Part shown: one piece after another, positions 3,021-26,526 of the stretch
Layout of the letters: each line of letters begins with the position of its first letter
Numbering within the stretch: the first letter of the stretch is position 1
Assembly: GCA_043812875.1 (NCBI GenBank)
Contig: JBDRLS010000103.1
Location: forward strand, 1 to 32,825
Length of the DNA: 32,825 nt
DNA from: Nanobdellota archaeon
Lineage (GTDB): Archaea > Nanobdellota > Nanobdellia > Woesearchaeales > JAHIVG01
Direction: 5' to 3'
Program-made: the position numbers and the translations under genes
The notes under the pieces: model-generated
The model's database searches: none
The model's input: the letters and a program-made list of their open reading frames with translations, nothing else
Told to the model about the DNA's origin: nothing

Positions 3021-3311
3021 ATGGTTGGATGCTGCGAGAATGCGCTGGCGGATTATGTGGCGTGGGACCTTCCCGGTACACCGGTCATCGTCGAGGTAGT
3101 GGTTCTTGGTTTAATGCCTCATGCCTATGTCCGTTCAAAGAGCCATATCAAAAGCGAAGCCAGCCCTGTATATGCAAAAATTCTGTCTTATGAAGGGCCT
3201 ATCGAAGAAGCGGATCCTGCTCTTTTCGGACCCGGGGCTTACAGAGTGGATGATTTCTTGATGTCTCTTGTGGAGCCTAATCAGTCACATGACGATAGTC
3301 GCCCCGGGTAA
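3021..3311 (+). CDS. Hypothetical protein (ORFan)
   Basis: Starts 1 nt after the GT9 stop with GGAGAG upstream and fills an otherwise empty 257-bp gap; no recognisable motif; overlaps the convergent gene by 35 nt. Confidence 0.45.
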   Translation: MVGCCENALADYVAWDLPGTPVIVEVVVLGLMPHAYVRSKSHIKSEASPVYAKILSYEGPIEEADPALFGPGAYRVDDFLMSLVEPNQSHDDSRPG

Positions 3312-4026
3312 AATAGCCGAGGAGCCGGTGGTCTTTTGCCAGGCGAGGGAAGAGGTCCCGTTCTAGGGAAATGACCTTCTTAAGCATGCTGAATACCTCC
3401 GGAGAGAAGATGTAGATGCCGGCGTTCACGACGTGGGAGGATGCGCTTTTTGTCTTTTCAGCGAAAGAGATGATGCGGTTGCCCTCCATGATGGCAGAGC
3501 CGTATTTCGAAGGTTCTTGCCTATCCATCAGACCCATGGTGGCGATGACCTGTTCCCTGAGATGGGATTGGATCATCCGTTTGAGGTCAAAGCTGTTCAG
3601 GATATCACCGGACATGACGACAAACGGACCTTTGAGCTTCGGCTCTGCAATGGCCAAGGCCTCACCATTTCCCCTGACCTCCGCATCCACGACTTCCACG
3701 GCGATAGGGGCGGCAGATGTCTCGACAAGAAGACGGTTCATCAATGCAGAGAATTGGGTGAGAATAAGGACTTTCTTGATCCCATGCGATGAAAACCAGT
3801 CAAGCTGGTGACCGAGGAGTGGCCTGCCGTCTATAGGACGCAGGGAAATGATTTGATGCCTCTTATGAAGAAGCAATACGGCGGTGGTGATCTCTCTCTC
3901 CCGAAGCCCTTTCCCGAGAAAATATTCAATGGCCTGGCTTCTTGACCTGAGCAGGGTGCCCTTCTTGGCACGGTCAAGCTCCTCAAGAAGGTCCTTGTCA
4001 AGGGAGACAGCGATCTTTTTTTTCAT
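3277..4026 (-). CDS. Ribbon-helix-helix (CopG/NikR-like) domain fused to a degenerate sugar-phosphate nucleotidyltransferase domain; putative regulator
   Basis: KIAVSLDKDLLEELD..RSRSQAIEYFL is RHH-like; the NTase fold retains GRPLL, SGDIL, KYG, VNAGIYIF and SLERDLFP but lacks GGxGTR..PK and WxDIG. Confidence 0.85.
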   Translation of the reverse strand: MKKKIAVSLDKDLLEELDRAKKGTLLRSRSQAIEYFLGKGLREREITTAVLLLHKRHQIISLRPIDGRPLLGHQLDWFSSHGIKKVLILTQFSALMNRLLVETSAAPIAVEVVDAEVRGNGEALAIAEPKLKGPFVVMSGDILNSFDLKRMIQSHLREQVIATMGLMDRQEPSKYGSAIMEGNRIISFAEKTKSASSHVVNAGIYIFSPEVFSMLKKVISLERDLFPRLAKDHRLLGYFTRGDYRHVTD

Positions 4027-4031
4027 TGTTG

Positions 4032-4048
4032 GTATTACTAAGTAATAC
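4032..4048. promoter_or_regulatory. Perfect inverted repeat GTATTACT-A-AGTAATAC; candidate operator
   Basis: 8-bp arms with a 1-nt spacer, lying between the minus-strand TATA (4049-4056) and ATG 4026 of the RHH gene. Confidence 0.65.
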
Positions 4049-4084
4049 TATTTAAATGTTTGTTTTCCGTCTATAATGAGAACA

Positions 4085-4137
4085 TTTAAAAATAGAATCC
4101 GCTTCCGTAGTCATACGAAAAACTACTTTGGTGATAC
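4085..4137 (+). promoter_or_regulatory. Promoter and leader of the gmhA operon with Shine-Dalgarno site
   Basis: TTTAAAAA 4085-4092; GTCATAC 4110-4116; SD GGTGAT 4130-4135 before ATG 4140. Confidence 0.6.
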
Positions 4138-4139
4138 CC

Positions 4140-4733
4140 ATGAAAGATGCCATCCGATCAATGCTGAAAGAAAGTGCACAGGTGAAGCTCAAGACTGCGG
4201 AAACGCTCACTTCTGAGATACAGACGGCTGCTGAAAAGATCATCGGCAGCTATAAGCAGGGCGGCAAGCTCATCATATTCGGAAACGGAGGAAGCGCGGC
4301 GGATGCCCAGCACATCACGACGGAGCTCATGCACCAATTTGAGAAGAACCGGAGATGTCTGCTTGCACTCGCGCTCAATACAAATACATCGATGATCACT
4401 GCCATCGGCAATGACTGGGGATTCGAAGACATATTCTCCAGGCAGGTAGAAGGACTCGCGACCCCAAAGGATGTCATCATCGCGATCAGCACCTCTGGCA
4501 ATTCCAAGAATGTCATCAAGGCAGTGAAGCTGGCAAAAGAGAAAGGAACATACACCATCTGCTTCACGAATCAGGAGGGCGGCATCCTGAAAGACATGGT
4601 CGACCTTTGCCTCTGTGTTCCGCATAAGAACACTGCCCGCGTGCAGGAATGTCATATCACCATAGGCCATATCCTCTGCAAGCTCATCGAAGAAAACCTC
4701 TTCCCCGACGCGGGAACGAGGAGGGGACCATGA
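4140..4733 (+). CDS. gmhA: D-sedoheptulose-7-phosphate isomerase
   Basis: GNGGSAADAQH, TAIGNDWG..IFSRQV, ISTSGNSKN and TARVQECHI; ATG 4140 chosen because of the SD. Confidence 0.95.
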   Translation: MKDAIRSMLKESAQVKLKTAETLTSEIQTAAEKIIGSYKQGGKLIIFGNGGSAADAQHITTELMHQFEKNRRCLLALALNTNTSMITAIGNDWGFEDIFSRQVEGLATPKDVIIAISTSGNSKNVIKAVKLAKEKGTYTICFTNQEGGILKDMVDLCLCVPHKNTARVQECHITIGHILCKLIEENLFPDAGTRRGP

Positions 4734-6163
4734 ACGCTTCGCTTGTCGGGCAGTTCCCGAAAAAGAGCATTCTTGCAATAGGCGACCTTGTCCTGGATAG
4801 CTATCTTGAGGGTGATGTCTCCCGTATTTCCCCTGAAGCGCCCGTTCCCGTGCTCCATGTCGAAAAGGAGCGATTTGTCCTCGGCGGAGCTGCGAATACC
4901 ATAGCAAATTGCGCCCATCTTGGCGCGCATGTCGAGGCGGTCGGAATCATCGGAAACGATGCCCCGGGAAAAAAGCTGCGCGCCCTGTTTTCTTCGATCG
5001 GCGTGGGTCATGGCGGGGTGGTTGTTGATGACAAGCGTCCGACGATAAGGAAGACCAGGCTGGTGACACAGCGGCAGCAGCTTGCCCGCATCGATTATGA
5101 GCATACGAGCGACATACCCTTGTCCCTCGAGAAGAAGATGCTTTCCCAGATCAGGAAAAGGATGACAAAGAGCGATGCGGTCATCATCTCAGATTATCAT
5201 AAGGGAACCATCACCGAGACGCTGGCGAAGGAGGTCATCAGTCTCGCAAGAAAGCAGGGCATCCCCCTCATTGTCGATACCAAACCTGACCACATGCTGT
5301 GGTTTGTGGATGCGACATTGATCACACCCAATAGGAAAGAGGCATCAACATTTGTTGGTTATGACCTTGATGATGAAGAGAGCGTGATCCGTGCAGGGAA
5401 GGAACTTGTTGAGAAAACGAAGAGCAATATCCTCATCACCCTCGGTGAACGGGGCATGGTGTTGATGGAAAAGGAAGGGAAGACAACTGCGGTGCCGACA
5501 CAGGCGAAGGAGGTGTTTGATGTCAGCGGCGCTGGCGATACGGTCGTAGCAGTCATGACACTGGGATTGGCTAGCAATGCATCCTTAAGCGAGGCAGCGA
5601 TCCTCGCGAACCATGCCGCAGGCATCGTCGTCGGAAAAGTCGGCACGGTCGCCATCACCAAAGACGAGCTTGCCCAGGTCATTGCAACAGGATCGACAAA
5701 GGTCAAGAGCCTTCCTGAGCTGAAGAAAACAACCGCTTTTCTGAAGAAGCAAGGGAAGCGGATCGTGTGGACAAATGGGTGCTTCGACATCCTGCACGTC
5801 GGGCATACCCGCTACCTGCAGGAGGCGCATAGGCTGGGTGATGTGCTCATCTTAGGATTGAATACTGATGCATCAGTCCATAGGTTTAAGGGGAAAGGAA
5901 GACCGATCCTCCCCGAGCGTGCGCGGGCAGAGGTGTTATCCGCGCTCAGCTCTGTTGATTATATCCTCTTCTTTGATGAAAGCACCCCGATAAGACAGAT
6001 CAAGGAACTCATGCCTGATATCATTGTCAAAGGAGGGGACTACAAAGCAGAAGATGTCGTCGGCTTTGATGTCATGAAAAAACAGGGAGGGAACGTGGTC
6101 ATCATTCCTCTTATCGAGGGATTTTCAACGACGACGCTGATCAACAAGATCCGAGACCAATGA
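4730..6163 (+). CDS. hldE: Bifunctional heptose-7-phosphate kinase / heptose-1-phosphate adenylyltransferase
   Basis: RISPEAPVPV, GGAAN, SDYHKG and DVSGAGDTV (PfkB kinase) followed by NGCFDILHVGH, KGGDY and GFSTT (nucleotidyltransferase); ATGA overlap at 4730. Confidence 0.95.
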   Translation: MNASLVGQFPKKSILAIGDLVLDSYLEGDVSRISPEAPVPVLHVEKERFVLGGAANTIANCAHLGAHVEAVGIIGNDAPGKKLRALFSSIGVGHGGVVVDDKRPTIRKTRLVTQRQQLARIDYEHTSDIPLSLEKKMLSQIRKRMTKSDAVIISDYHKGTITETLAKEVISLARKQGIPLIVDTKPDHMLWFVDATLITPNRKEASTFVGYDLDDEESVIRAGKELVEKTKSNILITLGERGMVLMEKEGKTTAVPTQAKEVFDVSGAGDTVVAVMTLGLASNASLSEAAILANHAAGIVVGKVGTVAITKDELAQVIATGSTKVKSLPELKKTTAFLKKQGKRIVWTNGCFDILHVGHTRYLQEAHRLGDVLILGLNTDASVHRFKGKGRPILPERARAEVLSALSSVDYILFFDESTPIRQIKELMPDIIVKGGDYKAEDVVGFDVMKKQGGNVVIIPLIEGFSTTTLINKIRDQ

Positions 6164-6726
6164 ACCGCGCGGTATTCCTGGACAGGGATGGGACGATCAA
6201 CCGAGATTCGCTCTATGCATATAAGATTGAGGATTTTGTCTTCTTGCCCGGGGTGAAAGAGGGCTTGAAAAAATTGCAGGCACTCTCTTTCAAGCTTATT
6301 GTGATAACCTCCCAATCAGGGATTGCACGAGGATTCTATACTGAAGAAGATCTTGAAAAAGTCCATGCATACATGCGCTCTGCATTAGAAAAAGAGGGGG
6401 TCCACCTTGATGCGGTCTATTATTGCCCCCATCACCCAGAAGCAGGGAATGAGAGATATAGGAAGGTCTGTGATTGCAGGAAGCCGAAGATAGGCTTGTT
6501 CCTCGAAGCAAAGAAGAGATTTGACATCGACCTTAAGAAAAGTTACATGATAGGCGACCGGAGCAAGGACATGGCTGCTGGAAAAACAGCCGGGTGCACG
6601 ACGATTTATCTGGATGTGCCTAAGCCTGATGATCATGAGCTGAAGGCTGCTCCTGATTACTCTGTGAAGAACTTCCCTGAAGCGGTCCAGGTGATCTTGG
6701 AGCGGGAGTCTTCTTCTGCCTTCTGA
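6160..6726 (+). CDS. gmhB: D-glycero-D-manno-heptose-1,7-bisphosphate phosphatase
   Basis: FLDRDGTIN, TSQSGIARG, YCPHHP..CDCRKP and MIGD..KD; ATGA overlap with hldE. Confidence 0.93.
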   Translation: MNRAVFLDRDGTINRDSLYAYKIEDFVFLPGVKEGLKKLQALSFKLIVITSQSGIARGFYTEEDLEKVHAYMRSALEKEGVHLDAVYYCPHHPEAGNERYRKVCDCRKPKIGLFLEAKKRFDIDLKKSYMIGDRSKDMAAGKTAGCTTIYLDVPKPDDHELKAAPDYSVKNFPEAVQVILERESSSAF

Positions 6727-7027
6727 AGCGCCAGGCGATGCCGATGCCTGCGAGAATAACCCATGTGACAGGGATAGCGATCCTGATCGAATTGAATACG
6801 ATGCCGAGATAATAGACCAGTCCAGAGAAGACGCCGATGCCGATGAAAAACGAGAAGATGAGCTGCTCTCCTGTTTCCAGATCGGTATTGTCGAGGATGA
6901 GATAGAATGGGATGATGAAGAAAAGCACAGCACCGATGAAGGTGAGCGCACCAGCCTGTCCGAGGAGGAAGAACAGGAAGAGCGCCGCCAATCCTGCGAT
7001 GATCCCTAAAATGAGGTATTTATTCAA
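6620..7027 (-). CDS. Hypothetical membrane protein (about 4 TM)
   Basis: Hydrophobic first 100 aa; start overlaps the stop of the GT-C gene; low-complexity tail runs antisense into gmhB. Confidence 0.75.
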   Translation of the reverse strand: MNKYLILGIIAGLAALFLFFLLGQAGALTFIGAVLFFIIPFYLILDNTDLETGEQLIFSFFIGIGVFSGLVYYLGIVFNSIRIAIPVTWVILAGIGIAWRFRRQKKTPAPRSPGPLQGSSSQSNQEQPSAHDHQA

Positions 7028-8597
7028 GCTTAAACACCTTGATTAAGTTTTTATCATACAGAAGGGTTGCCTTGCCTTCTAAAAGCAGTTCTTGTTCTTG
7101 CATGGCGGTGATCTGCGGAGCGTACCGCGGGTCTTGCTGCAGGTAGACGAGATCAGAGTAGTCGAAGAGGAGATGGTCCGGCTCGGTGAGGTCATCATCA
7201 AAATTGATCTTGACGAGGTGGCGGTGCGCGATGAACTGCATGAAGCGCTTTTTCGTGATTGTCAATGTCCCAAAATCCTCAGTGAGCGCATCATCCGCGA
7301 GATGTCCCTTCATCCATTCCGCGACCTCGACTTGTGCGGGAGTGATACGGGAGATTCCTCCGTATGCATTGTGGAGGGTTCCGTATGCGGCCTTTCCGTT
7401 CACCATGATAGCGACGATGATGAATATGATTGCCGCCGCCATCTTCAGGAATGGACGGACCGGTTTGGGCAGCTTCATAATCTTTATGAGATAGGTGATG
7501 AGCCATACAAAGCCGATGGCGATGATCGGGTAAAAGATATGCGCTTCAGCTGCGAGGGAGCGGTGCACCCTGCCCTTTCCGATCACGTCAAGATGGATCA
7601 TGATGTAAAGCGAGAGGAGCCAGCTCAACAGGAGCCAGTCTTGGCGTTTTCTTCTTATGAGGAGGAGGACAATGCCTGCGAGCAGGAAGGGGAGTGTCCA
7701 TATGCCATTCATATCCTTATACGAGAAATATGTGGGTGGAACTGCCCCGTTGAAATCAGCAGCATCAGGATACCATTCAAAAAGCCTGCTGATCTTGCCG
7801 AGGTTTTTCGCATCGGCCTTCTCTGTCTGCGTCAATTTGATGACGCTCATGGTCTGGAAGGGGAAGGCTGCTGCCATGACGATGAAAATGAAGGCTGCAA
7901 TGGCCAGGTGTTTCCATCTGAAGGGTATCTTTCGTTCTTTGATGAGCAGAACCAGGGTGAAGACGCCGAGCGCGGCAAGGGTGTGGAATAATCCTCCAGG
8001 ATGGAGATAAAAGTTGACTCCGATGAGGATGCCCATGACAGAAAGGTAGTATGCCTTTGGTTTTCCTGCGAAATACCCTTCAGTGTACTTGAAGTATGCA
8101 TACAGGATGATCGGGATGAAGGCATAGCTTATCCTTTCGGGCCACTGACCCCAGAGGAAGACCATGTAATCCCTTCCTGAGAAGATCAATAAGATGCTGG
8201 AGAGGATCGCCGGCAAGAGGCCGAATAGTTTACGCATGAAGAAATAGGTTCCCAAGACCATTATTGTGCAAAGGATGGCATTGAAGAGATAGATGGGAAG
8301 GAATCTGGATCCTGAGAAGATCTGCAGGAGGGCGAAGTTCATGTGATAGGGCGGATGATACCAGAGGGTGTGCGGCCTGAACTGGTTGTCCCAGCCGTAG
8401 CGGACGTCTATATAGTAAGGAAGCGTCGTTAGAGAATGGTCTGAGCTGGACTGGGCATCGGCAACAACAAAGTGGGAGGCGGCATCTGCCTCGCCATAGG
8501 GCAATTGATTTTCTTGAATCGGCTGTGTCCAGAGCCAGAGGGCACCAAGATATATGGCTAGGATGATGAATAGCTCAACTTTTGAAACACCCCTCAT
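7020..8597 (-). CDS. Multi-pass membrane protein, probable GT-C-fold glycosyltransferase (ArnT/PMT-like)
   Basis: N-terminal TM, acidic loop motif GEAD..H, YHPP motif, more than 10 TM segments and a soluble C-terminal domain. Confidence 0.65.
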   Translation of the reverse strand: MRGVSKVELFIILAIYLGALWLWTQPIQENQLPYGEADAASHFVVADAQSSSDHSLTTLPYYIDVRYGWDNQFRPHTLWYHPPYHMNFALLQIFSGSRFLPIYLFNAILCTIMVLGTYFFMRKLFGLLPAILSSILLIFSGRDYMVFLWGQWPERISYAFIPIILYAYFKYTEGYFAGKPKAYYLSVMGILIGVNFYLHPGGLFHTLAALGVFTLVLLIKERKIPFRWKHLAIAAFIFIVMAAAFPFQTMSVIKLTQTEKADAKNLGKISRLFEWYPDAADFNGAVPPTYFSYKDMNGIWTLPFLLAGIVLLLIRRKRQDWLLLSWLLSLYIMIHLDVIGKGRVHRSLAAEAHIFYPIIAIGFVWLITYLIKIMKLPKPVRPFLKMAAAIIFIIVAIMVNGKAAYGTLHNAYGGISRITPAQVEVAEWMKGHLADDALTEDFGTLTITKKRFMQFIAHRHLVKINFDDDLTEPDHLLFDYSDLVYLQQDPRYAPQITAMQEQELLLEGKATLLYDKNLIKVFKLE

Positions 8598-8669
8598 GAA
8601 GATGATGGTAGAGGGGGATTATAAAAAGGTTTGGATACATTTATATAGGAACCTGTCGCTCTTTATCGT

Positions 8670-9629
8670 ATGAAAACCGCTCTCATCACGGGAATAACAG
8701 GCCAGGACGGCAGCTATCTCGCAGAGTTCCTGCTCAAAAAAGGCTATAAGGTCTTTGGGATGATCCGCAGGGCGTCCACGGAAAAGTTTGACCGCATTGC
8801 GCATATCAAGCATGAGATCGAGTTCGTGCAAGCAGACCTTTTAGATCAGCTCTCACTTATCACGGCATTGAATGAAAGTTCCCCAGATGAAGTGTATAAT
8901 CTTGCAGCCATGAGCTTTGTGCCGACGTCTTGGTCACAGCCCGTGTTGACAGGAGAGTTCACCGCATTAGGCGTCACTCGGATGCTGGAAGCGATCCGGC
9001 TCGTGAATAAAGACATCAAGTTCTATCAGGCGAGCAGCTCAGAGATGTTCGGAAAGGTCAAAACGTCGCCCCAGAATGAGGAAACGCCGTTCCATCCGCG
9101 AAGCCCGTACGGGGTCGCGAAGACGTATGGACATTTCATCACGGTCAATTATCGGGAGAGCTTCGATATCTTCGGTTGTTCTGGAATCCTTTTTAACCAT
9201 GAAAGCCAGCGACGCGGCCTCGAGTTCGTGACCAGGAAGATCAGCAATGGCGCAGCTATGATCAAGCTCGGATTGGACAATGAATTGAAACTGGGCAATC
9301 TTGAAGCCCAGCGGGACTGGGGCTTTGCCGGAGATTATGTCAAGGCCATGTGGGCGATGCTCCAGCAGAAGGAAGCGGAGGATTTTGTCGTCGGCACAGG
9401 GAAGATGCATTCAGTGCAGGACGCTGTTGACATCGCCTTCAAGCATGTTGACCTTGATCCTGCGAAATATGTGAAGGTCGACAAGAAGTTCATGAGGCCT
9501 GCTGAAGTGGATATGCTCTGCGCTGACTCGAGCAAGGCGAAGAAGAAGCTCGGATGGCAGCCAGAGACCTCCTTTGAGAAGCTCATGAAGATGATGGTTG
9601 ACAACGATCTTAAGATGTTGAAACAATGA
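8670..9629 (+). CDS. gmd: GDP-mannose 4,6-dehydratase
   Basis: ALITGITGQDGSYLAE, YQASSSEMFG, PRSPYGVAK, LFNHES, FVTRKI and RDWG; TATA 8640-8647. Confidence 0.96.
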   Translation: MKTALITGITGQDGSYLAEFLLKKGYKVFGMIRRASTEKFDRIAHIKHEIEFVQADLLDQLSLITALNESSPDEVYNLAAMSFVPTSWSQPVLTGEFTALGVTRMLEAIRLVNKDIKFYQASSSEMFGKVKTSPQNEETPFHPRSPYGVAKTYGHFITVNYRESFDIFGCSGILFNHESQRRGLEFVTRKISNGAAMIKLGLDNELKLGNLEAQRDWGFAGDYVKAMWAMLQQKEAEDFVVGTGKMHSVQDAVDIAFKHVDLDPAKYVKVDKKFMRPAEVDMLCADSSKAKKKLGWQPETSFEKLMKMMVDNDLKMLKQ

Positions 9630-10510
9630 AGGTCATCATAACAGGCAGCAGCGGGTTTGTCGGACCGTGGCTGCGGAGGGCATTTTCTGAACATGATGTA
9701 GTAGGCATTGACCGGCATGATGCTGAGCATGTTGCCGATATCCTTGATTTCGGAGAAATGAAAGCCGTCTTTTCTCAGGAGAAGCCGGAGTGGGTGGTGC
9801 ATCTCGCTGCGCAGAGCTCTGTCGCCCGGAGCTGGGAACATCCAGAAGAGACGATGAATGTGAATGTCGAGGGGACGAGGAATGTCCTCGACGCTGCCGG
9901 AGATGCGAAAGTCCTTGTCATCGGCTCGGCAGAGGTTTACGGCATCCCCCAGATCCTGCCGATTACAGAAGATCACACATTGACTCCCATCTCCCCCTAC
10001 GGGCAGTCCCGAAAGGCGCAGGAAAAGCTGGTGCAGGAATATATTCATAGGGGAAAGAACATCGTCATATCCAGGAGTTTTTCCCATACTGGACCTGGGC
10101 AGTTGCCCCAGTTTGTGTGCTCTGAATTCGCAAAAGCGATCGCAGAGATCGAGAACGGAGATCGAGAAGAGATCATCAAGACTGGTGATGGAAGCATCAA
10201 GCGCGACTTCACTGATGTCAGAGACATAGTCGTGGCATACCGCCTTGCGCTGGAGAAGGCGAGGCCTGGAGTTTACAATATCTGCTCAGGCAGGTCTTAC
10301 AGCATCCGGGATATCTTGGATAGGCTGCTCGAACACAGTTCTGCCGATGTGAAGATTGTCGAGGATGAGACCAAGATTAGGAAAGCGGACATCCCTGATC
10401 TTTGCGGGGATGCAGGGAAGTTCAATAAAGAGACAGGATGGAAACCAGAGATACGCTTTTCCCAAACATTAAAGGATCTCCTCGAGTACTGGAGACAGCA
10501 TCTTAGCTGA
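9626..10510 (+). CDS. rmd: GDP-4-keto-6-deoxy-D-mannose reductase-like extended SDR (GDP-D-rhamnose or 6-deoxy-talose)
   Basis: GSSGFVG, HLAAQSSV..SW, GSAEVYG, HTGPGQ and RDFTDVRD; coupled to gmd by ATGA. Confidence 0.75.
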   Translation: MKVIITGSSGFVGPWLRRAFSEHDVVGIDRHDAEHVADILDFGEMKAVFSQEKPEWVVHLAAQSSVARSWEHPEETMNVNVEGTRNVLDAAGDAKVLVIGSAEVYGIPQILPITEDHTLTPISPYGQSRKAQEKLVQEYIHRGKNIVISRSFSHTGPGQLPQFVCSEFAKAIAEIENGDREEIIKTGDGSIKRDFTDVRDIVVAYRLALEKARPGVYNICSGRSYSIRDILDRLLEHSSADVKIVEDETKIRKADIPDLCGDAGKFNKETGWKPEIRFSQTLKDLLEYWRQHLS

Positions 10511-11224: not shown

Positions 11225-12229
11225 TTAAAGGTTTGGAACGATGGTGTGTAATGTATCGATGATCATATCTATCGTGATGGCGTCGCTGCAGTTCGGGGAA
11301 TGGCTTTCTTTCTTGTAGCAGCAGTAACAGTCGATGTCTGGGAAGATTTTCTCGCCGAGCCCATAGAGCTCGATCTCTGAAGCAGATGTGGGGCCGAAGA
11401 AGGCGATGATCTTTCGCTTGAGCGCAATAGCTATGTGGAGGGCGAGGCTGTCGCTCGTTATGAGAAGATCGACTGCAGCGAGTTTTGCTGCGAATATTCT
11501 TACTGGGTTGTTTGTACCAGCGTCGATGATTGTGCAGGTGGCTTTTTCCATGATCTCTTGATTTCGCTCTTTCTCTTCTGGGCCGCCGAAGAGGACAATC
11601 TTTGCTTTTGGCGCGAGGAGTTCTGCTAGCTCCACTGTTTTTTCAATGCTGAGGCGTTTGAGGGGCCAGCGCTTGCCCGCACCGGTATTCAATCCTAGGG
11701 TGAACTTGTCTTCAAGAGCATGTTCTTTTTTGAATGATTGTGTGATCCCCTTTTCATCGTCGGTGAGATTGAAAATAGTCTCGCTCTTCACTGGCTTGAT
11801 GCCGATGATCTTCAGGATGTGCTGCTGATAGGTGAGCGTGTTCTGTTTCTTTAGGACATCATTCATTGGTTTCGGGCCTAACGCGGACATGCGATAGTAT
11901 TGCTCTGCGTCAGGGGTATAGGCAACGCCGTCATCCCAATAGAAACCTTTGAACAAGATCGCATCGGCTTTGAGTTCTGCGGCTATCTTGCAGGCTTGCT
12001 CGTCCTCATCAAGGCTGATGACAAAATCGAACTTTTTAGGGGAGAAGTTCTCTACAGCAATGAGTTCATGGATGAATGGATTGTGTTCGAGGAGGGGGAT
12101 TGCAGTCTCCTTTGTTATCCAGGTGATTTTAGCAGTGGGATGGATCTCTTTGAGGCCTTGGAGAATGCATGTCGTTCTCAGTACATCACCTGCCGCGCCG
12201 AGCTTGATGATGGCTATGCTCTGGATCAT
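11225..12229 (-). CDS. Glycosyltransferase family 9 (ADP-heptose heptosyltransferase-like)
   Basis: IKLGAAGDVLRTT, NTGAGKRWP, GGPEE, TSDSLALHIAIAL, FFGPT and CYCC. Confidence 0.88.
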   Translation of the reverse strand: MIQSIAIIKLGAAGDVLRTTCILQGLKEIHPTAKITWITKETAIPLLEHNPFIHELIAVENFSPKKFDFVISLDEDEQACKIAAELKADAILFKGFYWDDGVAYTPDAEQYYRMSALGPKPMNDVLKKQNTLTYQQHILKIIGIKPVKSETIFNLTDDEKGITQSFKKEHALEDKFTLGLNTGAGKRWPLKRLSIEKTVELAELLAPKAKIVLFGGPEEKERNQEIMEKATCTIIDAGTNNPVRIFAAKLAAVDLLITSDSLALHIAIALKRKIIAFFGPTSASEIELYGLGEKIFPDIDCYCCYKKESHSPNCSDAITIDMIIDTLHTIVPNL

Positions 12230-17507: not shown

Positions 17508-17632
17508 GGCGGTGATATGACCAATATTTAATATAAAGGTTGCGAAAAAAAGCAAAGGCACATTCCATTCATTCAAAAGGAACAGGTTATTAACAGGGAG
17601 ATTAAAATGGTTCGTGCTGCTCGGAAAATGAG

Positions 17633-18547
17633 CTATGCAAATAAATGCCGCCATTCTCTCACTGAGAGACGCTGTTTTCTCAGAAGTTTTCTGCGCTTTT
17701 CATAGATGACGAAGCGCTTTTTGTATGCAGCTTTCCATGCGTTTAGGATGACCCCTGCTTTCCCTTTGAGCAGGTATTTGAAGAAGATCGCTGCTTGGAG
17801 CGCGATGATAGGGATGCTGTATCTTATAAGGATGGCTGTTGGATAGTTCTTCCTGATGGTCCAGATACGGTTTCTCGTGCCGAGGAAGATGCTCTTGTCT
17901 GATCGCTTCATTGTGGCGCCGTGATCATGATGGACAATGGCCCTTGGCTGGGAGGCGCACTTCCACAGTCTTGAACGGGCTCGCAGACCGAGGTCGAGGT
18001 CTTCATAGTAGATGAAGAAGTCGCTGTCAAAATAGTCCCCGCCAAATTTGATCTCTTCGAGCACCTTCTTCCGGTAGAATGCAGCGCCGCCGCAGGGGCA
18101 TAGCGGCTTGTCCCGCGTCGTCTTGATGTCAGAAGAGAGCCCTGACGCCTTAAGCTTGATGCCATAGGTGTCGATGTCGCCATCGGGGAGAAGCATCTTC
18201 GGGGCGACCATGCCGACTCTTGTTTTCCCCTCGACTGACTGCATGAGATAGGTTAAGCATTCTGGATCGAGCATGGTGTCATTGTTGAGGATGAAGACGA
18301 AATCCCCTTTCGCTGCCTCGATGCCCTTGTTGTTCCCGGCGGCAAAGCCGAGGTTCTTCTGGAGCTGGATGATCCTGATGTTGGGAAAGGTGTTCTTGAC
18401 ATAATCCGAGGACCTGTCGACAGAGCCGTTGTCGACGAGGATGGTCTCGAAATTAGTATAGGTCTGGGCAAGGACTGAGGGGAGGCATCTCTCCAGAAGA
18501 TGCTTGCCGTTCCAATTCAAGACGATGACAGAGATTCGGGGACGCAT
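17633..18547 (-). CDS. Glycosyltransferase family 2 (WbbL/rhamnosyltransferase-like)
   Basis: IVLNWNG, VDNGSVD, NLGFAAGNN, LNNDT and FFIYYEDLDL; ATG 18547 lies 22 nt from TATA 18570-18577. Confidence 0.88.
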   Translation of the reverse strand: MRPRISVIVLNWNGKHLLERCLPSVLAQTYTNFETILVDNGSVDRSSDYVKNTFPNIRIIQLQKNLGFAAGNNKGIEAAKGDFVFILNNDTMLDPECLTYLMQSVEGKTRVGMVAPKMLLPDGDIDTYGIKLKASGLSSDIKTTRDKPLCPCGGAAFYRKKVLEEIKFGGDYFDSDFFIYYEDLDLGLRARSRLWKCASQPRAIVHHDHGATMKRSDKSIFLGTRNRIWTIRKNYPTAILIRYSIPIIALQAAIFFKYLLKGKAGVILNAWKAAYKKRFVIYEKRRKLLRKQRLSVREWRHLFA

Positions 18548-18621
18548 GACCACTTCAGAGGAGTAGGTGTATTAATACTTTTGGAAAAAGGTTTTTAAAC
18601 ATGTCATTTCTCTGTAATAGC

Positions 18622-19779: not shown

Positions 19780-19819
19780 ATTCCCAAGTTTTATAAATCC
19801 AAAAGATACATGAGAAGCC

Positions 19820-20623
19820 ATGGCATCCCGCTTCGGTTCTGCAAGGAATGCATATGAAAAGAATGATCTTGAGCTTTCTCGCCGTGCGCATACTTCAGGA
19901 GTAATCAAGAAACATGTCCACCCAGAGGAGCATGGGGATGAGAAGAGCCAGTATCTGGGCGAGTTTGTCTACGGGGCGATCGATGGTGCGGTCACAACGT
20001 TTGCAGTGGTTGCTGGGGCGACGGGAGCGGCGCTCTCTTCAGGTGTGGTCATCATCCTCGGCTTCGCCAACCTGATTGCAGATGGTTTCTCCATGGCTGT
20101 GGGCAATTTCATAAGCGAGCGCACCCAGAGGGATTTTATCAGGAAGGAACGTACTCGGGAAGAATGGGAGGTCGACCATGTGCCCGAAGGGGAACGGGAG
20201 GAGATAAGGGAGATCTTCCGGAAGAAAGGATTCAAGGGAAAAGAGTTAGAGCGTGTTGTTGAGGTTATCACTTCGGATAAGAAAGTGTGGGTCGATACCA
20301 TGATGGTGGACGAGCTTGGATTATTAGAGAGCCAGAAGAGCCCGTGGAAGAGTGCAGGGGCGACTTATTTCGGATTCATCCTGATCGGTCTTATCCCGCT
20401 GCTGTCTTATGTTGTTTCCGCTTTTTTTCCTCTGCCGAATCCATTCTTTATAGCGATCATCTTGACAGGGATTGCGCTGTTTGCAGTGGGCGCAGTGAAA
20501 CGGTTTGTCACCAAGACCAGCTTGTGGAAGTCAGCGTTTGAGACAGTGTTCATCGGAGGGGCGGCTGCGGTCATTGCGTATTACGTCGGGTTCTTCCTGA
20601 GATGGGTCGTGACAGTAGCTTAA
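19820..20623 (+). CDS. VIT1/CCC1 family Fe/Mn transporter
   Basis: VYGAIDGAVTTFAVVAG, GFANLIADGFSMA, Glu-rich insert (REEWE..EGEREE) and MMVDELG; TATA 19790-19797. Confidence 0.92.
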   Translation: MASRFGSARNAYEKNDLELSRRAHTSGVIKKHVHPEEHGDEKSQYLGEFVYGAIDGAVTTFAVVAGATGAALSSGVVIILGFANLIADGFSMAVGNFISERTQRDFIRKERTREEWEVDHVPEGEREEIREIFRKKGFKGKELERVVEVITSDKKVWVDTMMVDELGLLESQKSPWKSAGATYFGFILIGLIPLLSYVVSAFFPLPNPFFIAIILTGIALFAVGAVKRFVTKTSLWKSAFETVFIGGAAAVIAYYVGFFLRWVVTVA

Positions 20624-20700
20624 TTGATATGAGTCCACGATTTAGTTAGACAGGGAACTTGATAGAAAAGTTTATAATTTTCTAAATATTATCATGGCTT

Positions 20701-21129
20701 ATGATAACCTTTCAGTCATTGAATCTAGAAAAATATCAATATGAACCACAATATATATCCTATCTGTCCTCACTTAATAAATTTTTAACAAACTTCTTGC
20801 CCAAAATTAAACATACTCATGTGTTTTTGACTGGGTCGTTTATTAAAGGAAAGTTGCATGAAGGTTCTGATTTGGATTTAGATATTGTTCATCCGGATAT
20901 CAAAGAAACAGAAGTAATAAAAATAAATATTGACGGTGTCAATATTGAATATGCGACCTTTTCTTTAAAAATGATTGAAAAAAAAATTAGTGGAGAAATT
21001 CATTATGATCATCCGGACTTATTGGCTAATGCAGTTTCTCATTGGAAAATGATTGCAGGAGATTATTTCCCAAGTGAATTGGTTGATAAAGAGAGAAGAT
21101 TTAAAAAAATAAGTTCTCTGTGTCCCTAG
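20701..21129 (+). CDS. Pol-beta superfamily nucleotidyltransferase domain protein (MNT-like)
   Basis: FLTGSFIKG..EGSDLDL matches hGS..SDxD; TATA 20671-20678; visibly AT-rich compared with flanks. Confidence 0.75.
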   Translation: MITFQSLNLEKYQYEPQYISYLSSLNKFLTNFLPKIKHTHVFLTGSFIKGKLHEGSDLDLDIVHPDIKETEVIKINIDGVNIEYATFSLKMIEKKISGEIHYDHPDLLANAVSHWKMIAGDYFPSELVDKERRFKKISSLCP

Positions 21130-21265
21130 TGATATTGGATATGTCATCGGTTACACAAGATTATATAGGTAAGAATGACGCAGTTCCCCTTTGACGTAAA
21201 TGATGAATGTATTCTCTGAAAGAACAGGTGTGTTGAATGATAGGGGTTCGCGGAAGCTGTGAAAC

Positions 21266-22678
21266 TCACACTTTCGCCATTGATTCAAACACAGACTTTG
21301 CCATGCCCGGGCCGCGGACGAAGACAAGCTTTGCTAGGCCTTTGATGCCGGACTCTTGGTAGATCATGCGGATATACTTCTTGTATTCCCCTGAGGTGAT
21401 CGCCTTTCGGTAGGTGGAGATCTGGCCGAGATCATAGATCTCTTTGAGGTCTTCGAATTTGACACCGGGATAATTCAAGGTCGCATTCTGCAGGCCATCA
21501 AACGTGTCCCAGTTCTGGGCTTCGAGCCAGCCTTCCTGCACAGCCTCGTCATAAAGCGGGGTTCCTGGGAAAGGTATCGTCAGCGAGATTTGGTAAGAAT
21601 CACCATGTTTCAATGCGAAGCGAAGGGTGTCTCTTGCAGATTCCAAGGTCTCCCCTGGAAGGCCAATTGTGTAGGTGCAATGGGTCCGGATGCCGAGTTC
21701 CTTGCACGCCTTGAGTGTTTTCGTGATGAGCTTGACATTGGTGCCCTTCTGCAACCGCTTGAGGACTTCATCATTCGGGCTTTCGACGCCGAATTTGAGG
21801 GCGACGAGGTTTGATTTCTTCAGGAGCTCGAGGGTCTCCCTAGTTATCGCAGTATGGCCCATGGCAGACCACTCTAGGTCTGGAAGCTGTGCTGCTTTGA
21901 GGCGGGCCAGCTCTTGAAGCATCAGCGGCTTGCCATTGATCATATCATCATCAAAGTAGGCTTCCTTTGGATTGTATTTCTCGACCACGAATTTCATCTC
22001 GTCGATGATGTTCTGCGGATTTCGGAACCTATAGTTCCTGCCGTTGAACATGCGGAAGATATTGCAGAATGAGCAGCGGAACATGCAACCCCTTGATGCC
22101 TGGAACTGGACATTCGGATAGTTGTCGCAGAATGACTCATTATACTTGCTCATGTCGAAGAGATGCCGGGCTGGCCAGGGGATGGAGTCAATGGGCGCGA
22201 GCTTTTCCTGGCGGATGATCTTTTCATTTCGTCTCCCCTGCAAAAGATCAAGAAGCGTGAACTCGAATTCTGCAACCAGGACATGATCTATGAAAGCATT
22301 CTTCGCCACGTGTTCGGGAAGAGCAGAGGGGTGTTGCCCTGTTGCAATGATCCTGCATCCAAGCTGGGCCTTGAGGTCTTTGAGAATTTGGATGTCATTC
22401 GCGTAAGAAGGAGTGGAGATCTCGCAGACCAGTACATCTGGATGGAATGCTTTGAGTTGCCGCAAGAACTCTTCCTCAGTGAGATGATGGGTAAGCGCAT
22501 CAATGACCTTGACAGGATGGCCTGCGGCCTCAACAGCGGCAGCGGCAGTGGCCATGAAGAAAGGGAATGGTCGAAAGCTCACGATAGGGATCTTGTCTGA
22601 GGTATGTGCCCAACGCACTCCTGCGCGAGCGGCATAACGTTTCCCTCTCCAAGGCAGATCTACGAAGACGACACGCAT
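21266..22678 (-). CDS. Cobalamin-binding radical SAM protein
   Basis: SRGCMFRCSFC (CxxxCxxC), YFDDD, GVES, IGLPGET and PFPGT; N-terminal B12-binding-like domain with GQHPS; TATA 22701-22708. Confidence 0.88.
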   Translation of the reverse strand: MRVVFVDLPWRGKRYAARAGVRWAHTSDKIPIVSFRPFPFFMATAAAAVEAAGHPVKVIDALTHHLTEEEFLRQLKAFHPDVLVCEISTPSYANDIQILKDLKAQLGCRIIATGQHPSALPEHVAKNAFIDHVLVAEFEFTLLDLLQGRRNEKIIRQEKLAPIDSIPWPARHLFDMSKYNESFCDNYPNVQFQASRGCMFRCSFCNIFRMFNGRNYRFRNPQNIIDEMKFVVEKYNPKEAYFDDDMINGKPLMLQELARLKAAQLPDLEWSAMGHTAITRETLELLKKSNLVALKFGVESPNDEVLKRLQKGTNVKLITKTLKACKELGIRTHCTYTIGLPGETLESARDTLRFALKHGDSYQISLTIPFPGTPLYDEAVQEGWLEAQNWDTFDGLQNATLNYPGVKFEDLKEIYDLGQISTYRKAITSGEYKKYIRMIYQESGIKGLAKLVFVRGPGMAKSVFESMAKV

Positions 22679-22777
22679 ATGATGACCAACTTCAGGGGGT
22701 TATTTAAAGGTTTCTGCTCAAACATGCCCTGTCCGGCGCCCATAGATTTTTAAATCAAGCAAGAATTATGAAAACAC

Positions 22778-24583
22778 ATGCATGTCGTCCTTATCACGCC
22801 AAAAGGGAATATCAAGATAGCGCTTGATCAAGATGCACAAGGGAAATCAATCGGTGATTATGCGACCGCACAATTGAATGATGAATGCGTCGCTGCATTC
22901 AAGGAGCTCTCGCGTACCGCTGTTGAGGGAAAGCAGATACGGGAGAAATTCTGTATTGATGGCTTGTCCTTCTGGTGGATCATGGAGGACTGGCTCTGGG
23001 ATAGCTTTGCCTTTCGCCATCGATTCAAGGATGTCTTCCAAGCCATTGCGCTCTTCGACGAGATGATCAAATGTGAGAAGCCTTCAGCGATCACCTACTT
23101 CGGACAGGATAGCATGCATCATGCTGTTCTCAAAGAAGTGTGCAAATCAAATGGGATCACGTTCAAGGCCAAGCTCTCCATAAAAGAGGGGCCACGGCAA
23201 AGGATGTTGATGATCTCGGCGTTCTTTACATTGCGCTTCATTCTCAGAAAGAGCTACAGCTTCTTCCTTCCTGATAAACGCATCACCAAGGGAGGGGTCA
23301 TGGCATTTCCGCCCCATCATTGGAAAAAGGTCTTCGATCCAGGGAAGAAAGCGTTCATTACCGGAGACCCTTATACAACTCCGACCATGAACATCATCAG
23401 CAAGACCACTCCTGCGATATCTGTGGAGTTTCCGGCTGAGCATTCCAAGGAATTCGGATTTTGGCGGATGAAAACAAAATCCCGGCTTGATGGACATCTC
23501 CTCTTTGAACGCCATCTGAGATGGAATGACTTCCTTGAAGCGCACGCGAAGGCACGTTTACTGGAGAAAGAGGCACTCACTGTCTCAAAGGCGCAAAAAA
23601 ACGCGCGCTTCAAAGGAGTCCATTACTGGGCAATCTGTGTACCTCAGTTCATCTCCTACTTCCGCTACCGCCTCCCCAGCCATGTCCTGATGTTCCTCGG
23701 GATCCGCAGGCTTCTCAATGCATACAATCCTCGTGCGGTCTTCTTCTCAGCAGAAACAGGAGACCTTGGGAAAATCATCTTCTTCCTCTCTTCAAGGAAA
23801 GGAATCCCCAGCATCGCTATGCAGCACGGCATCATCACAGATTCCATGAGGGTCATGAGGGAGAAGAATGATGGATGCCCCCTTCCTGAGATGACTTGCC
23901 TGTACGGTGACCAGGATAAGGAATACCTTGTCAGATCATGCCATTATCCTCCTGGAAAAGTCAAGGTCATCGGCAATCAACGCAATGATGTCTTCGCTTT
24001 CAAGGAACTGTTCGACATCCCCAAGATAAAGGAAGAACTTGGTGTCAAAGGAAAGACGGTTGTTCTCGCCACACAAGAGATCCCTGATGAACAACTGCGT
24101 CGTGCGTATATCCTTGAAACGTGCAAGGCATTAGCACCGTTTCCGGTCGAGGTCATCATCAAGGTGCATCCTGCTGAAGATATAAGTTATTATCAAGAGC
24201 TGGTGTCGGCAAGCCCTTTGAAGAACGTCAAGATAATCAAAGAGTATGATATCACTCAGGCTATCGCAGCCTCAGATCTGGTCATCATCTACACATCGAC
24301 CGTGGGGATGGATGCCCTCATTCTCGACAAGGCATTGCTTGTGGTGAATCTTTCTGGAATGCCAGATCATGTCGGATATGCAAAAGAAGAGGCTGCTCTT
24401 GGTGCAAGGACTCCTGAAGAGATCAGTTTGCAGCTCAAGCGATGGATGAAGGGACTGCCTCCTGAGTTTGCAGAACAGAGAAAAGCCTTTGTTGCCAAGA
24501 GCTGCCATAAGATTGATGGGAAATCCACTGAAAGACTTGCTGAAACAATCCTTCACTATGTAAAACAGAAGAAAGTACGGTAA
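22778..24583 (+). CDS. Surface-carbohydrate biosynthesis protein, GT-B fold; candidate ulosonic-acid transferase
   Basis: MQHG, GNQRND, IKVHPAE, STVGMDA and DGKSTER, as in TagF/capsule-synthesis/sialyltransferase-like proteins; directly upstream of neuB. Confidence 0.6.
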   Translation: MHVVLITPKGNIKIALDQDAQGKSIGDYATAQLNDECVAAFKELSRTAVEGKQIREKFCIDGLSFWWIMEDWLWDSFAFRHRFKDVFQAIALFDEMIKCEKPSAITYFGQDSMHHAVLKEVCKSNGITFKAKLSIKEGPRQRMLMISAFFTLRFILRKSYSFFLPDKRITKGGVMAFPPHHWKKVFDPGKKAFITGDPYTTPTMNIISKTTPAISVEFPAEHSKEFGFWRMKTKSRLDGHLLFERHLRWNDFLEAHAKARLLEKEALTVSKAQKNARFKGVHYWAICVPQFISYFRYRLPSHVLMFLGIRRLLNAYNPRAVFFSAETGDLGKIIFFLSSRKGIPSIAMQHGIITDSMRVMREKNDGCPLPEMTCLYGDQDKEYLVRSCHYPPGKVKVIGNQRNDVFAFKELFDIPKIKEELGVKGKTVVLATQEIPDEQLRRAYILETCKALAPFPVEVIIKVHPAEDISYYQELVSASPLKNVKIIKEYDITQAIAASDLVIIYTSTVGMDALILDKALLVVNLSGMPDHVGYAKEEAALGARTPEEISLQLKRWMKGLPPEFAEQRKAFVAKSCHKIDGKSTERLAETILHYVKQKKVR

Positions 24584-24626
24584 TTCCAGTAAATTTGCCT
24601 AAAAATCATTAAAAAAAATAGATAAT

Positions 24627-24674
24627 CTTAAATATGGCATACAAATTGTACGGTACAATCGATCATGAGGTGAT
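24627..24674 (+). promoter_or_regulatory. Promoter of the neuB operon with overlapping palindromes (candidate operator) and SD
   Basis: TATA CTTAAATA 24627-24634; TACAA-A-TTGTA 24640-24650; ATTGTAC-G-GTACAAT 24645-24659; SD GAGGTGAT 24667-24674. Confidence 0.65.
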
Positions 24675-24678
24675 CACC

Positions 24679-25707
24679 ATGCCAAAAGAAGGATTTGACT
24701 CAATAACCATATCTGAAGAGCTCAGCACAAAGATCTCTCAATATCTCGGGGAAAACGAAGGCATAATACCCAATAAGTCACAGGCCATTGCGCATGCATG
24801 GCAGCTATTCGAGCACATCTCCCAGCAGGAGAAGAACCCGAAACCCGTCAGGATCGGAAACCGGCTTGTCGGACCGAATGAAGCGCCATTCCTTATCGCT
24901 GAAGTGGGGATCAACCACAATGGCGATGTTGAACTTGCGAAGAAGCTGATAGACCTCGCGGCAAAATATGGATGGGATGCAGTCAAGTTCCAGAAGCGGA
25001 CCATTGATAAGGTATACACCAAGGAAGAGCTTGCAAAGCCAAGGGAAAATCCTTTTGGCGCCACGAACGGCGACCTGAAGAGAGGACTTGAATTTGATGA
25101 GAAAGCATACAAAGAGATCGATATGTACTGCAAGGAGAAGGGTGTCATGTGGTTTGCCTCACCGTGGGACCTGGATAGTGTCGACTTCCTTGAAAAGTTC
25201 CAAGTGCCGTGCTATAAAGTGGGATCACCTAGCCTTACTGACATAAAGCTTCTCCTGAAGATCAAGGAGACGGGAAAGCCTGTCGTCCTCTCGACAGGCA
25301 TGAGCACCATGAAACAGATTCATGAAGCGGTCAGGATCCTCGGAGAGGAGAACGTCATCTTGATGCAATGCACTTCGACATATCCATGTGAACCGCACGA
25401 ACTTGACCTCCATGTGATTACCACATTCAGGAAGACCTTCAACTGCCCGATCGGCTACAGCGGACATGAAATAAACCCCTATCCGAGCATCGTCGCTGTA
25501 GGTCTTGGAGCATGCGCCATTGAGAGGCACATCACCCTTGACAGGTCCATGTTCGGCAGCGACCAGGCAGCGAGCCTTGAAGCGAGGGGCATGGAGCTCG
25601 TCGCCAAGTGCAGACAAGTGCCATCTTTCATGGGCAGCAAGAAGAAAAGGGTCTTCGACAGTGAGATCCCTATCATGAAAAAGCTCAGGAAGGTGACTGA
25701 CTTTTGA
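24679..25707 (+). CDS. neuB: NeuB-family ulosonic acid (9-phosphate) synthase with an N-terminal RHH-like extension and no C-terminal SAF domain
   Basis: IAEVGINHNGD, AVKFQKRT, LSTGMST, GYSGHE and IERHITLDR..GSD; N-terminus MPKEGFDSITISEEL..NKSQAI; start fixed by the SD. Confidence 0.9.
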   Translation: MPKEGFDSITISEELSTKISQYLGENEGIIPNKSQAIAHAWQLFEHISQQEKNPKPVRIGNRLVGPNEAPFLIAEVGINHNGDVELAKKLIDLAAKYGWDAVKFQKRTIDKVYTKEELAKPRENPFGATNGDLKRGLEFDEKAYKEIDMYCKEKGVMWFASPWDLDSVDFLEKFQVPCYKVGSPSLTDIKLLLKIKETGKPVVLSTGMSTMKQIHEAVRILGEENVILMQCTSTYPCEPHELDLHVITTFRKTFNCPIGYSGHEINPYPSIVAVGLGACAIERHITLDRSMFGSDQAASLEARGMELVAKCRQVPSFMGSKKKRVFDSEIPIMKKLRKVTDF

Positions 25708-26522: not shown

Positions 26523-26526
26523 ACCT

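Follow-up and report, generated by a model that had tools for sequence, protein, structure and literature searches.

On the sequence evidence, we consider it fairly probable that a 32,825-nucleotide stretch of archaeal DNA (hereafter the window) encodes two dedicated one-component regulators of a cell-surface glycan pathway. Both would join an N-terminal ribbon-helix-helix (RHH) segment to a fold from sugar metabolism: in RHH-NT1 (protein A, P0001) a degenerate nucleoside diphosphate (NDP)-sugar-pyrophosphorylase-like domain, and in RHH-NeuB (protein B, P0123) a NeuB-type ulosonate synthase. RHH-NT1 is divergent from the ADP-heptose operon gmhA-hldE-gmhB, RHH-NeuB heads an ulosonate operon, and most likely the two regulators act as switches for the production of two unusual sugars of the cell surface. 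The window corresponds to contig C103 in a genome of 1.50 Mb (150 contigs, 93% complete; G000; genomes, contigs and loci carry G, C and L numbers). The closest homologues of its proteins are labelled Woesearchaeota or Nanoarchaeota archaeon by their sources, indicating that the host is a DPANN-type archaeon, and glycan synthesis accounts for most of the window's coding content as judged by Pfam and NCBIfam.

RHH-NT1 is a 249-residue protein encoded on the minus strand (3277–4026), with the RHH at residues ~1–45 (3892–4026) and the pyrophosphorylase-like domain at residues 48–249. The Pfam model RHH_1 matches isolated residues 1–50 with 23.2 bits against a cut-off of 20.5 (19.7 bits in the whole protein), and the closest PDB sequence match of the segment is NikR, a non-significant one (E = 0.3). 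In the AlphaFold2 (AF2) monomer model the N-terminus has helices at residues 11–21 and 29–38 and is unstructured at residues 1–10, at low confidence (predicted local distance difference test (pLDDT) 44–62). K4, A6, S8 and RSRSQA are invariant in 29 sequences (RSRSQAI being residues 27–33), and the strand pattern K-x-A-x-[SA] occurs in 30/30 orthologues. The domain that follows matches PF00483 (E = 6e-20) over profile positions 29–198 only. It is modelled by AF2 with pLDDT >90 over residues 48–249, and the top Foldseek matches of the model are GDP-mannose pyrophosphorylases (TM-score 0.70), including VTC1, GMPPB and GMPPA (7d72, 7d74); HddC is matched as well.

The signature of catalysis is missing from this domain. 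Where the enzymes carry AGGxGTRLRPxT...PK, RHH-NT1 has LLLHKRHQII, followed by a 9-residue deletion that removes the PK lysine region; GGxGTRL is found in 0/30 RHH-NT1 orthologues as against 30/30 members of the paralogue family RHH-NT2 (P0128). The pocket motifs SGD, YG, EKP, NAGIY and E-x-D are invariant or nearly so. From the RmlA and GlmU literature, we take GGxGTRL...PK to be catalytic and the later motifs to be substrate-binding. Because the catalytic loop is lost while the sugar-nucleotide pocket motifs stay, the pyrophosphorylase fold of RHH-NT1 is probably a ligand-binding pseudoenzyme, serving as a sensor and not as an enzyme. A preliminary description of the window had proposed two N-terminal RHH-like segments sharing an SQAI motif, each fused to a sugar-enzyme fold; both fusions are indeed present, but with its loop lost in all 30 orthologues the heptose-linked one no longer reads as a fusion to an enzyme.

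We judge it unlikely that RHH-NT1 instead combines regulation with enzyme activity, acting for instance as a nucleotidyltransferase for heptose- or mannose-1-phosphate through an unusual active site. Such a protein would explain why the fold and most of the pocket motifs have survived, why H57 within the replaced loop is nearly invariant and why the NCBIfam and Foldseek matches include the heptose-1-phosphate guanylyltransferase HddC; RHH-NT2, moreover, keeps the full catalytic signature, so that an enzyme carrying an RHH is likely to be ancestral. Against this stand the absence of GGxGTRL from all 30 orthologues, the deletion of the conserved lysine region, the nucleotidyltransferase domain that hldE already supplies in the heptose operon, and the NCBIfam enzyme models, all of which score RHH-NT1 far below their cut-offs (for example, 87 versus 440 bits).

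As a family, RHH-NT1 is tied to heptose genes. A word-indexed protein search returned 302 relatives, of which the best 120 are 244–289 residues long with 98–100% query coverage and 48–64% identity; their public labels are nucleotidyltransferase or hypothetical, with PF00483 the sole precomputed domain. We surveyed 201 genomes of the same order, counting as orthologues matches with E ≤4e-53 and ≥39% identity (the next match being at 7e-39), and found an orthologue in 38. Loci were compared for the 30 best orthologues, whose neighbours within 1.5 kb include hldE (13 loci), gmhA (12) and heptosyltransferase-family GT9 genes (17), with at least one of these at 25/30. At the level of genomes, hldE is present in 35 of the 38 with RHH-NT1, and RHH-NT1 in 3 of the 129 that have no hldE. 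Related genomes are non-independent samples, and co-occurrence is given here as counts without P values; the genomes compared include two unpublished ones, G132 (source of L014) and G210. A gene for a DUF6541 membrane protein follows the regulator in L008 and L017 (G190 and G102).

In the window, the heptose operon occupies 4140–6726 on the plus strand (gmhA 4140–4733, hldE 4730–6163, gmhB 6160–6726), with an ATGA overlap at both junctions. The start of gmhA was corrected to 4140 (not 4128 or 4141), and that of hldE is most likely 4730, where ATGA overlaps the gmhA stop. HldE has kinase and adenylyltransferase domains (PfkB, cytidylyltransferase-like) and GmhB has HAD-family matches; GmhA scores below its equivalog cut-offs (208.5 versus 276 bits and 188 versus 209), and the domain set fits the ADP-heptose pathway. 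The promoter consists of a TATA-like box, TTTAAAAATA (4085–4094, plus strand), a conserved element, GCTTCCGTAGTCATAC (4101–4116, plus strand), at the expected transcription start of gmhA, and a GGTGAT Shine-Dalgarno sequence (4130–4135, plus strand) 4 nt 5' of the ATG at 4140. The preliminary description had singled out gmhA and the NeuB gene as the only leadered units with GGTGAT, which agrees with our reading: a TATA-like box ~45 nt upstream and a Shine-Dalgarno sequence 4 nt before the ATG are seen at these 2 of 33 gene starts. Its view of the other promoter-proximal genes as leaderless also stands, the TATA-like box ending ~22–26 nt before the ATG in most of them.

The gene for RHH-NT1 is itself leaderless and carries a candidate operator, O_A, between its TATA box and its ATG. 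The TATA-like box, read from the sequence, is ATTTAAATA on the minus strand (4049–4057), and abutting it lies the palindrome GTATTACT-A-AGTAATAC (4032–4048; 8+1+8), which ends 5 nt 5' of the ATG (4024–4026). O_A is more aptly described as a pair of 7-bp boxes, GTATTAC (4032–4038) and GTAATAC (4042–4048), with 10 bp between their centres. Either box is close to a palindrome by itself (GTA-W-TAC), an arrangement in which a symmetric RHH dimer could sit on each box, with both dimers on the same side of the helix. Both of the perfect palindromes with a 1-nt spacer that had been noted just downstream of TATA boxes are thus present, but for protein A the spacer reading gives way to that of two boxes. 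Compared with genome G096 of the same family, the intergenic region (4020–4145) is 85% identical, though the regulator proteins are 57% identical, and in the gmhA promoter the alignment keeps GCTTCC-RTAGT-MWTAC. Between the two divergent promoters, TTTAAATGTTTGTTTTCCG belongs to the stretch conserved with G096.

Conservation of O_A was assessed with a position weight matrix (PWM) built from the 17-mers just 5' of the regulator ATG, at a threshold of ≥11 bits. A site lies 1–10 nt (usually 1–7) before the ATG in 24/30 RHH-NT1 loci, and L025 and L027 also carry one once their starts are corrected, for a total of 26/30. When whole loci were scanned on both strands with leave-one-out matrices trained on proximal sites only, 82 of the 90 matches at ≥11 bits fell within 200 nt upstream of the regulator ATG. 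Many of these are distal sites, on which no matrix was trained; they are near-perfect copies of GTATGAA-N3-TTCATAC at about -93 to -135, by the start of divergent gmhA, hldE or cupin-epimerase genes. In L007 and L010, where the regulator is not adjacent to the heptose promoter, the sites adjoin the gmhA start.

The same association holds across whole genomes. Perfect GTATGA-N5-TCATAC occurs once per genome in four of the five genomes tested and twice in the fifth. The regulator lies 25–35 kb away in G190 and G102 and on another contig in G027 and G151, and in all four the palindrome precedes hldE, gmhA or an operon of an epimerase gene and hldE. It is present in 29/38 genomes with RHH-NT1 versus 18/163 without it, the reversed-pattern control being present in 18/201 of all genomes; among hldE-bearing genomes alone the counts are 28/35 with the regulator versus 3/37 without. 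In the 1.5-Mb genome of the window, O_A is the top PWM site (19.0 bits, with a leave-one-out score of 18.4, versus 17.0 for the next). We found no wider O_A regulon in this genome, which has 9 PWM sites at ≥13 bits versus 14–25 in local shuffles, and the window site is the sole credible O_A site in it.

The second regulator, RHH-NeuB, is a 342-residue protein encoded on the plus strand (24679–25707), with an RHH-like module at residues 1–52 (24679–24834) and a NeuB TIM-barrel core from residue ~53. Its start is at 24679, which is M16 of the listed open reading frame (from 24634), and 4/4 close homologues likewise begin MPKEG; with this start the gene is leadered, its GGTGAT Shine-Dalgarno sequence lying at 24669–24674 (plus strand). 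PNKSQAI in the module is followed by a PF03102 match (249 bits). The core aligns to the PDB entries 6ncs and 1xuu from residue 53–56 on, the best being 6ncs, a 290-residue synthase without an SAF domain; likewise, no SAF domain was found in RHH-NeuB, which ends ~285 residues after the start of its core. Its GHE and ERH motifs, presumably metal ligands, align to SDH and EKH of the solved enzymes. With 250 bits it does not reach the cut-off of 400 of the N-acetylneuraminate synthase equivalog TIGR03569. RHH-NeuB is apparently an intact ulosonate synthase and is predicted to be active. The remaining operon (25704–28582, plus strand), as annotated with Pfam and NCBIfam, encodes a xylose-isomerase-like TIM barrel, two short-chain dehydrogenase/reductase (SDR) proteins and a KdsC-like phosphatase (28106–28582).

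The N-terminal module of RHH-NeuB is likely to be an RHH, on evidence that is transitive. Alignment with hhalign to the RHH of the protein A family has 78% probability (E = 1.8e-5) and extends from the strand through helix 1 into the first part of helix 2, placing NKSQAI on RSRSQAI. A profile search of 1.84 billion proteins with the module yielded 16 matches, including small stand-alone proteins that start MPKEG-x-x-SIT, and 4/7 stand-alone homologues match RHH_1 or RHH_5 (E 1e-4 to 1e-3), one of them above the cut-off. Together with the RHH_1 match of protein A, this sustains the earlier claim that both N-termini are RHH or RHH-like. Protein-atlas matches of the module, CopG/RHH clusters among them, score 0.83, a value that shuffles often reach, and serve as a lead only; a two-copy complex prediction of residues 1–55 scored 0.35 against a mark of 0.42 and was used neither way.

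The module was found in 6/401 genomes of the order, in six different families. The fused proteins are the closest group of NeuB homologues (59–68% identity versus ≤49% for unfused ones), and their neighbours include genes for a cytidine monophosphate (CMP)-transferase and a KdsC-like phosphatase, with gmhA adjacent in G397. In G096 (C8:26361–28239; L003/L033/L072) the RHH-NT1 gene is directly followed by the RHH-NeuB gene, with gmhA-hldE divergent upstream, so the two modules are linked to each other as well. We also observed a metagenomic protein of 235 residues, P0132, which has an MPKEG-type RHH, the first NeuB strand (PKPVRIGNK) and a weak PF00483 region (E = 0.005); it may be a chimera of both fusion types or an assembly artefact.

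The NeuB promoter has its own pair of candidate operators. O_B1, ATTGTAC-G-GTACAAT (24645–24659; 7+1+7, with the core GTACGGTAC at 24648–24656), begins 9 nt after the TATA-like box of the operon, TTAAATAT (24628–24635, plus strand), at the expected transcription start. O_B2, GTACGGTAA (24575–24583), matches 8/9 positions of GTAC-N-GTAC (a relaxed site, at -104) and shares bases with the preceding gene's stop codon. Two full or 8/9 sites are found upstream in 5/6 fused loci, 52–74 nt apart and nowhere else in these ~3.2-kb loci, and on visual reading the pairs flank the TATA-like box. None of 24 unfused NeuB loci has an upstream GTAC-N-GTAC site, one having a relaxed match 2.1 kb inside. Co-occurrence of palindrome and fusion, which the preliminary description had named as one way to check its proposal, is found for protein A and protein B alike. 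In the whole genome GTAC-N-GTAC is ~10-fold depleted (2 copies versus 14–31 in shuffles), and since the second copy sits within a 442-codon open frame, O_B1 is the sole non-coding one.

Two further features of these sites may be recorded. The depletion of GTAC-N-GTAC in this genome hints at a general avoidance of GTAC, perhaps through restriction-modification. Between O_B1 and the NeuB start, an inverted repeat GATCA-N5-TGATC (24661–24675) spans the GGTGAT Shine-Dalgarno sequence and could form a 5-bp leader hairpin that masks the ribosome site.

The paralogue RHH-NT2, encoded on the minus strand elsewhere in the same genome (G000:C113:6438–7271; L031 2936–3772), provides a point of comparison. 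It consists of an RHH and a pyrophosphorylase with intact GGKGTRLRPIT...PK, and its gene adjoins a phosphoglucomutase-like gene and is divergent from a fructose-1,6-bisphosphatase (FBPase) gene. Its putative operator, at ~C113:7314, is a direct repeat, TCATAC-N4-TCATAC, just upstream of the TATA box. The pattern TCAYAY-N4-TCAYAY recurs in 21/30 RHH-NT2 loci, mostly between -57 and -61, immediately before the B recognition element (BRE)/TATA region, with three copies elsewhere in 103 kb. The RHH strand of this paralogue is R-x-T-x-T in 27/30, like RVTITL of NikR. The three RHH classes seen differ in both their beta-strand residues and their operators, as the preliminary description would lead one to expect.

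It is improbable, in our view, that the operators are bound by some other factor, such as RHH-NT2, and that the RHH segments of RHH-NT1 and RHH-NeuB serve mainly for dimerisation or protein contacts. The TCATAC hexamer is common to the NT1 and NT2 operators, RHH-NT2 is the more widespread protein (RHH-inclusive matches in ~67/151 genomes by manual row count), and a new dimeriser would make sense in RHH-NeuB, which has no SAF dimerisation domain. Yet the inverted GTATGA-N5-TCATAC tracks RHH-NT1 among hldE-bearing genomes, while the NT2 sites are arranged differently, as direct repeats upstream of the TATA box. In addition, the K-x-A-x-S strand of NT1 is invariant, as expected of base contacts, and GTAC-N-GTAC is confined to the fused NeuB loci.

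Perfect palindromes alone are not beyond chance in the window, which has 17 entries (12 distinct) with arms ≥7, whereas 30 first-order simulations average 10.3 entries. Being no rarer than simulated, they leave the argument to rest on position and on conservation in other genomes. A repeat search at a minimum length of 12 found neither operator palindrome, their arms being 7–8 nt. A reading in which the palindromes arise by chance or mark promoters in general, and in which the NeuB extension is not an RHH, could appeal to these counts, to the missing direct family match of that extension and to an atlas score that shuffles often reach, but it is very improbable and for protein A already contradicted. 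Each operator is conserved in different families of the order and goes specifically with the fused genes, O_A is the top PWM match in 1.5 Mb, GTAC-N-GTAC is present at the NeuB promoter despite its genome-wide depletion, and the homology of the NeuB module to RHH is supported transitively.

Several observations weigh against the two proteins being dedicated regulators. There is no clear proximal O_A site in 4/30 loci (L007, L008, L010 and L017), and the perfect palindrome is missing in 9/38 regulator-bearing genomes, several of which have variant boxes. RHH-NT1 and RHH-NT2 might bind each other's sites, as both use the TCATAC hexamer, and the loss of catalysis in RHH-NT1 is read from motifs that we take to be catalytic. 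For RHH-NeuB, the N-terminus has no direct match in Pfam, PDB sequence or PDB profile searches, and its AF2 model (from 5 sequences) has two helices at pLDDT <50. The NeuB comparison comprises six genomes, one of which, G210, has a divergent strand (CSIRSD) and no site. Finally, the gmhA promoter in the window keeps a single box, GTCATAC (4110–4116, within the conserved element), where relatives have their best palindrome. The preliminary description had tied the heptose operon to the fusion and its operator; this is supported in relatives, with the best palindrome at gmhA or hldE, whereas the strong operator of the window is on the regulator's own promoter. With a strong site there and one box at gmhA, autoregulation is the stronger inference in this genome, and control of the heptose operon is proposed mainly from relatives. 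In L008 and L017, GGGGTATKC-AAAG stands just 5' of the ATG in place of the proximal site and looks like a variant class of operator.

Under the mechanism that we propose, RHH-NT1 would bind DNA via its N-terminal RHH, probably as a dimer of dimers with one dimer per 7-bp GTAWTAC or TTCATAC box and the boxes 10 bp apart. On sites between the TATA box and the transcription start it would block recruitment of RNA polymerase, most likely repressing both the divergent ADP-heptose operon and the leaderless gene that encodes it. The C-terminal domain of RHH-NT1 would sense a pathway metabolite (for example, NDP-heptose, NDP-mannose or a sugar-1-phosphate) and thereby set the affinity for DNA; the metabolite could be a co-repressor, giving product feedback, or an inducer. 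RHH-NeuB, as a trigger enzyme in the style of PutA, would bind to GTAC-N-GTAC on either side of the TATA box in the promoter of the operon that it heads. Repression is proposed because the operators lie between TATA box and start or flank the TATA box, and sites there or around the TATA box are usual for archaeal repressors. DNA binding, repression, oligomerisation and the ligand with its direction of action are deduced from sequence, binding to the operators solely from the co-occurrence of sites with regulator genes.

In design, these proteins are RHH one-component regulators like NikR and PutA, with new sensor or enzyme partners. In NikR and MetJ a ligand sets the affinity for DNA, and the sensor of NikR is a nickel-binding ACT-like domain. 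RHH-NT1 resembles NikR in having an N-terminal RHH and a C-terminal ligand-binding domain in one polypeptide. It differs in its sensor, a pyrophosphorylase fold (PF00483) whose presumed ligand is a sugar nucleotide and not a metal, in its strand K-x-A-x-S, and in the archaeal half-sites, which are spaced by N5 or form a direct repeat with a 10-bp period instead of being spaced by N16. RHH-NT1 is accordingly NikR-like in outline and, as judged by its sequence features, not a member of the NikR family. Escherichia coli NikR is reported to bind GTATGA-N16-TCATAC (PMC7055735), so the archaeal RHH domains appear to use the NikR hexamer at other spacings.

For RHH-NeuB the best analogue is PutA, in which an RHH is joined to enzymes of proline catabolism and which regulates its own pathway and autoregulates, switching by redox state and membrane binding. 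RHH-NeuB is likewise an RHH with an enzyme, proposed to autoregulate its own promoter; the enzymes of PutA are, however, unrelated to NeuB, and nothing like redox or membrane switching is indicated for RHH-NeuB. RHH-NT1 differs from PutA in probably being no enzyme at all. The regulators of the ROK/NagC-Mlc, RpiR/SIS and SorC types, and BirA and NadR, also combine a DNA-binding domain with a metabolic enzyme fold as sensor or working enzyme; they share this design principle but use a helix-turn-helix and other enzyme folds. A parallel to the RHH-NT1 sensor is offered by GMPPA, described as a non-catalytic, GDP-mannose-binding paralogue of GDP-mannose pyrophosphorylase that acts as a product sensor (PMC11228364). 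RHH-NT1 has the same fold with catalysis apparently lost, and GMPPA is among its top Foldseek matches. The difference lies in the output, as GMPPA acts allosterically on a catalytic partner by protein contact and RHH-NT1 would signal to a DNA-binding domain.

In our literature search, which did not extend to subscription journals or supplementary files, neither a fusion of an RHH to PF00483 nor one to PF03102 came up. Public names ignore the RHH, so that a whole family of regulators is currently hidden, in organisms whose transcription control is almost unknown, DPANN archaea being uncultured. If the proposal is true, a DNA-binding protein that senses through a pyrophosphorylase pseudoenzyme would bring in a new type of sensor module, parallel to eukaryotic GMPPA, and a NeuB trigger enzyme would be a second case like PutA. 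Here the sequence reveals two candidate regulators together with their putative operators and target operons, all of which are testable with recombinant protein and short DNA.

The RHH of protein A extends beyond the order, its profile matching 142/301 genomes drawn from the phylum, among them members of other orders in the same class. The matches mostly fall in open frames of 250–300 codons, with up to six per genome. Tentatively, and with somewhat less than even confidence, we suggest a large, undescribed family in Woesearchaeales-type DPANN archaea and sister orders within the class, in which a NikR-like RHH would be joined to a catalytic (NT2) or pseudoenzyme (NT1) pyrophosphorylase, in up to six copies per genome with their own TCATAC-based operators. 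Together with RHH-NeuB, this family would wire the provision of nucleotide sugars for a glycan similar to the inner core of bacterial lipopolysaccharide (LPS), which would contain heptose and a ulosonate like 3-deoxy-d-manno-octulosonate (Kdo) and be built by GT9 heptosyltransferases. Were this true, operators and sensor pockets would be defined well enough to read a regulatory network of uncultured archaea from sequence.

Other genes of the window bear on the glycan itself. One GT9 heptosyltransferase-family gene (1922–3019, plus strand; PF01075, E = 1.4e-34) is convergent with RHH-NT1, and a second GT9 gene, of the same heptosyltransferase family, lies at 11225–12229 on the minus strand. With ADP-heptose synthesis, a NeuB-like synthase, a KdsC-like phosphatase and a CMP-transferase, these form a set resembling the enzymes of the Kdo-heptose inner core (1922–3019, 4140–6726, 11225–12229 and 24679–29333), which suggests that some archaea may build an LPS-inner-core-like glycan. 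NDP-heptoses are agonists of innate immunity, and how they are made in different kingdoms currently attracts interest, as a commentary notes (PMC11461863). In addition to the two GT9 genes, the window has GT2 and GT4 glycosyltransferases and encodes GDP-mannose dehydratase-like and epimerase proteins, a CMP-sugar transferase and a flippase. Two further perfect palindromes were noted: GGGGTCTTGCAAGACCCC (31030–31047), inside the intergenic gap at 30802–31291, and TCTCTCACTGAGAGA (17655–17669), immediately 5' of the ATG of a gene for a 1094-residue S8 protease.

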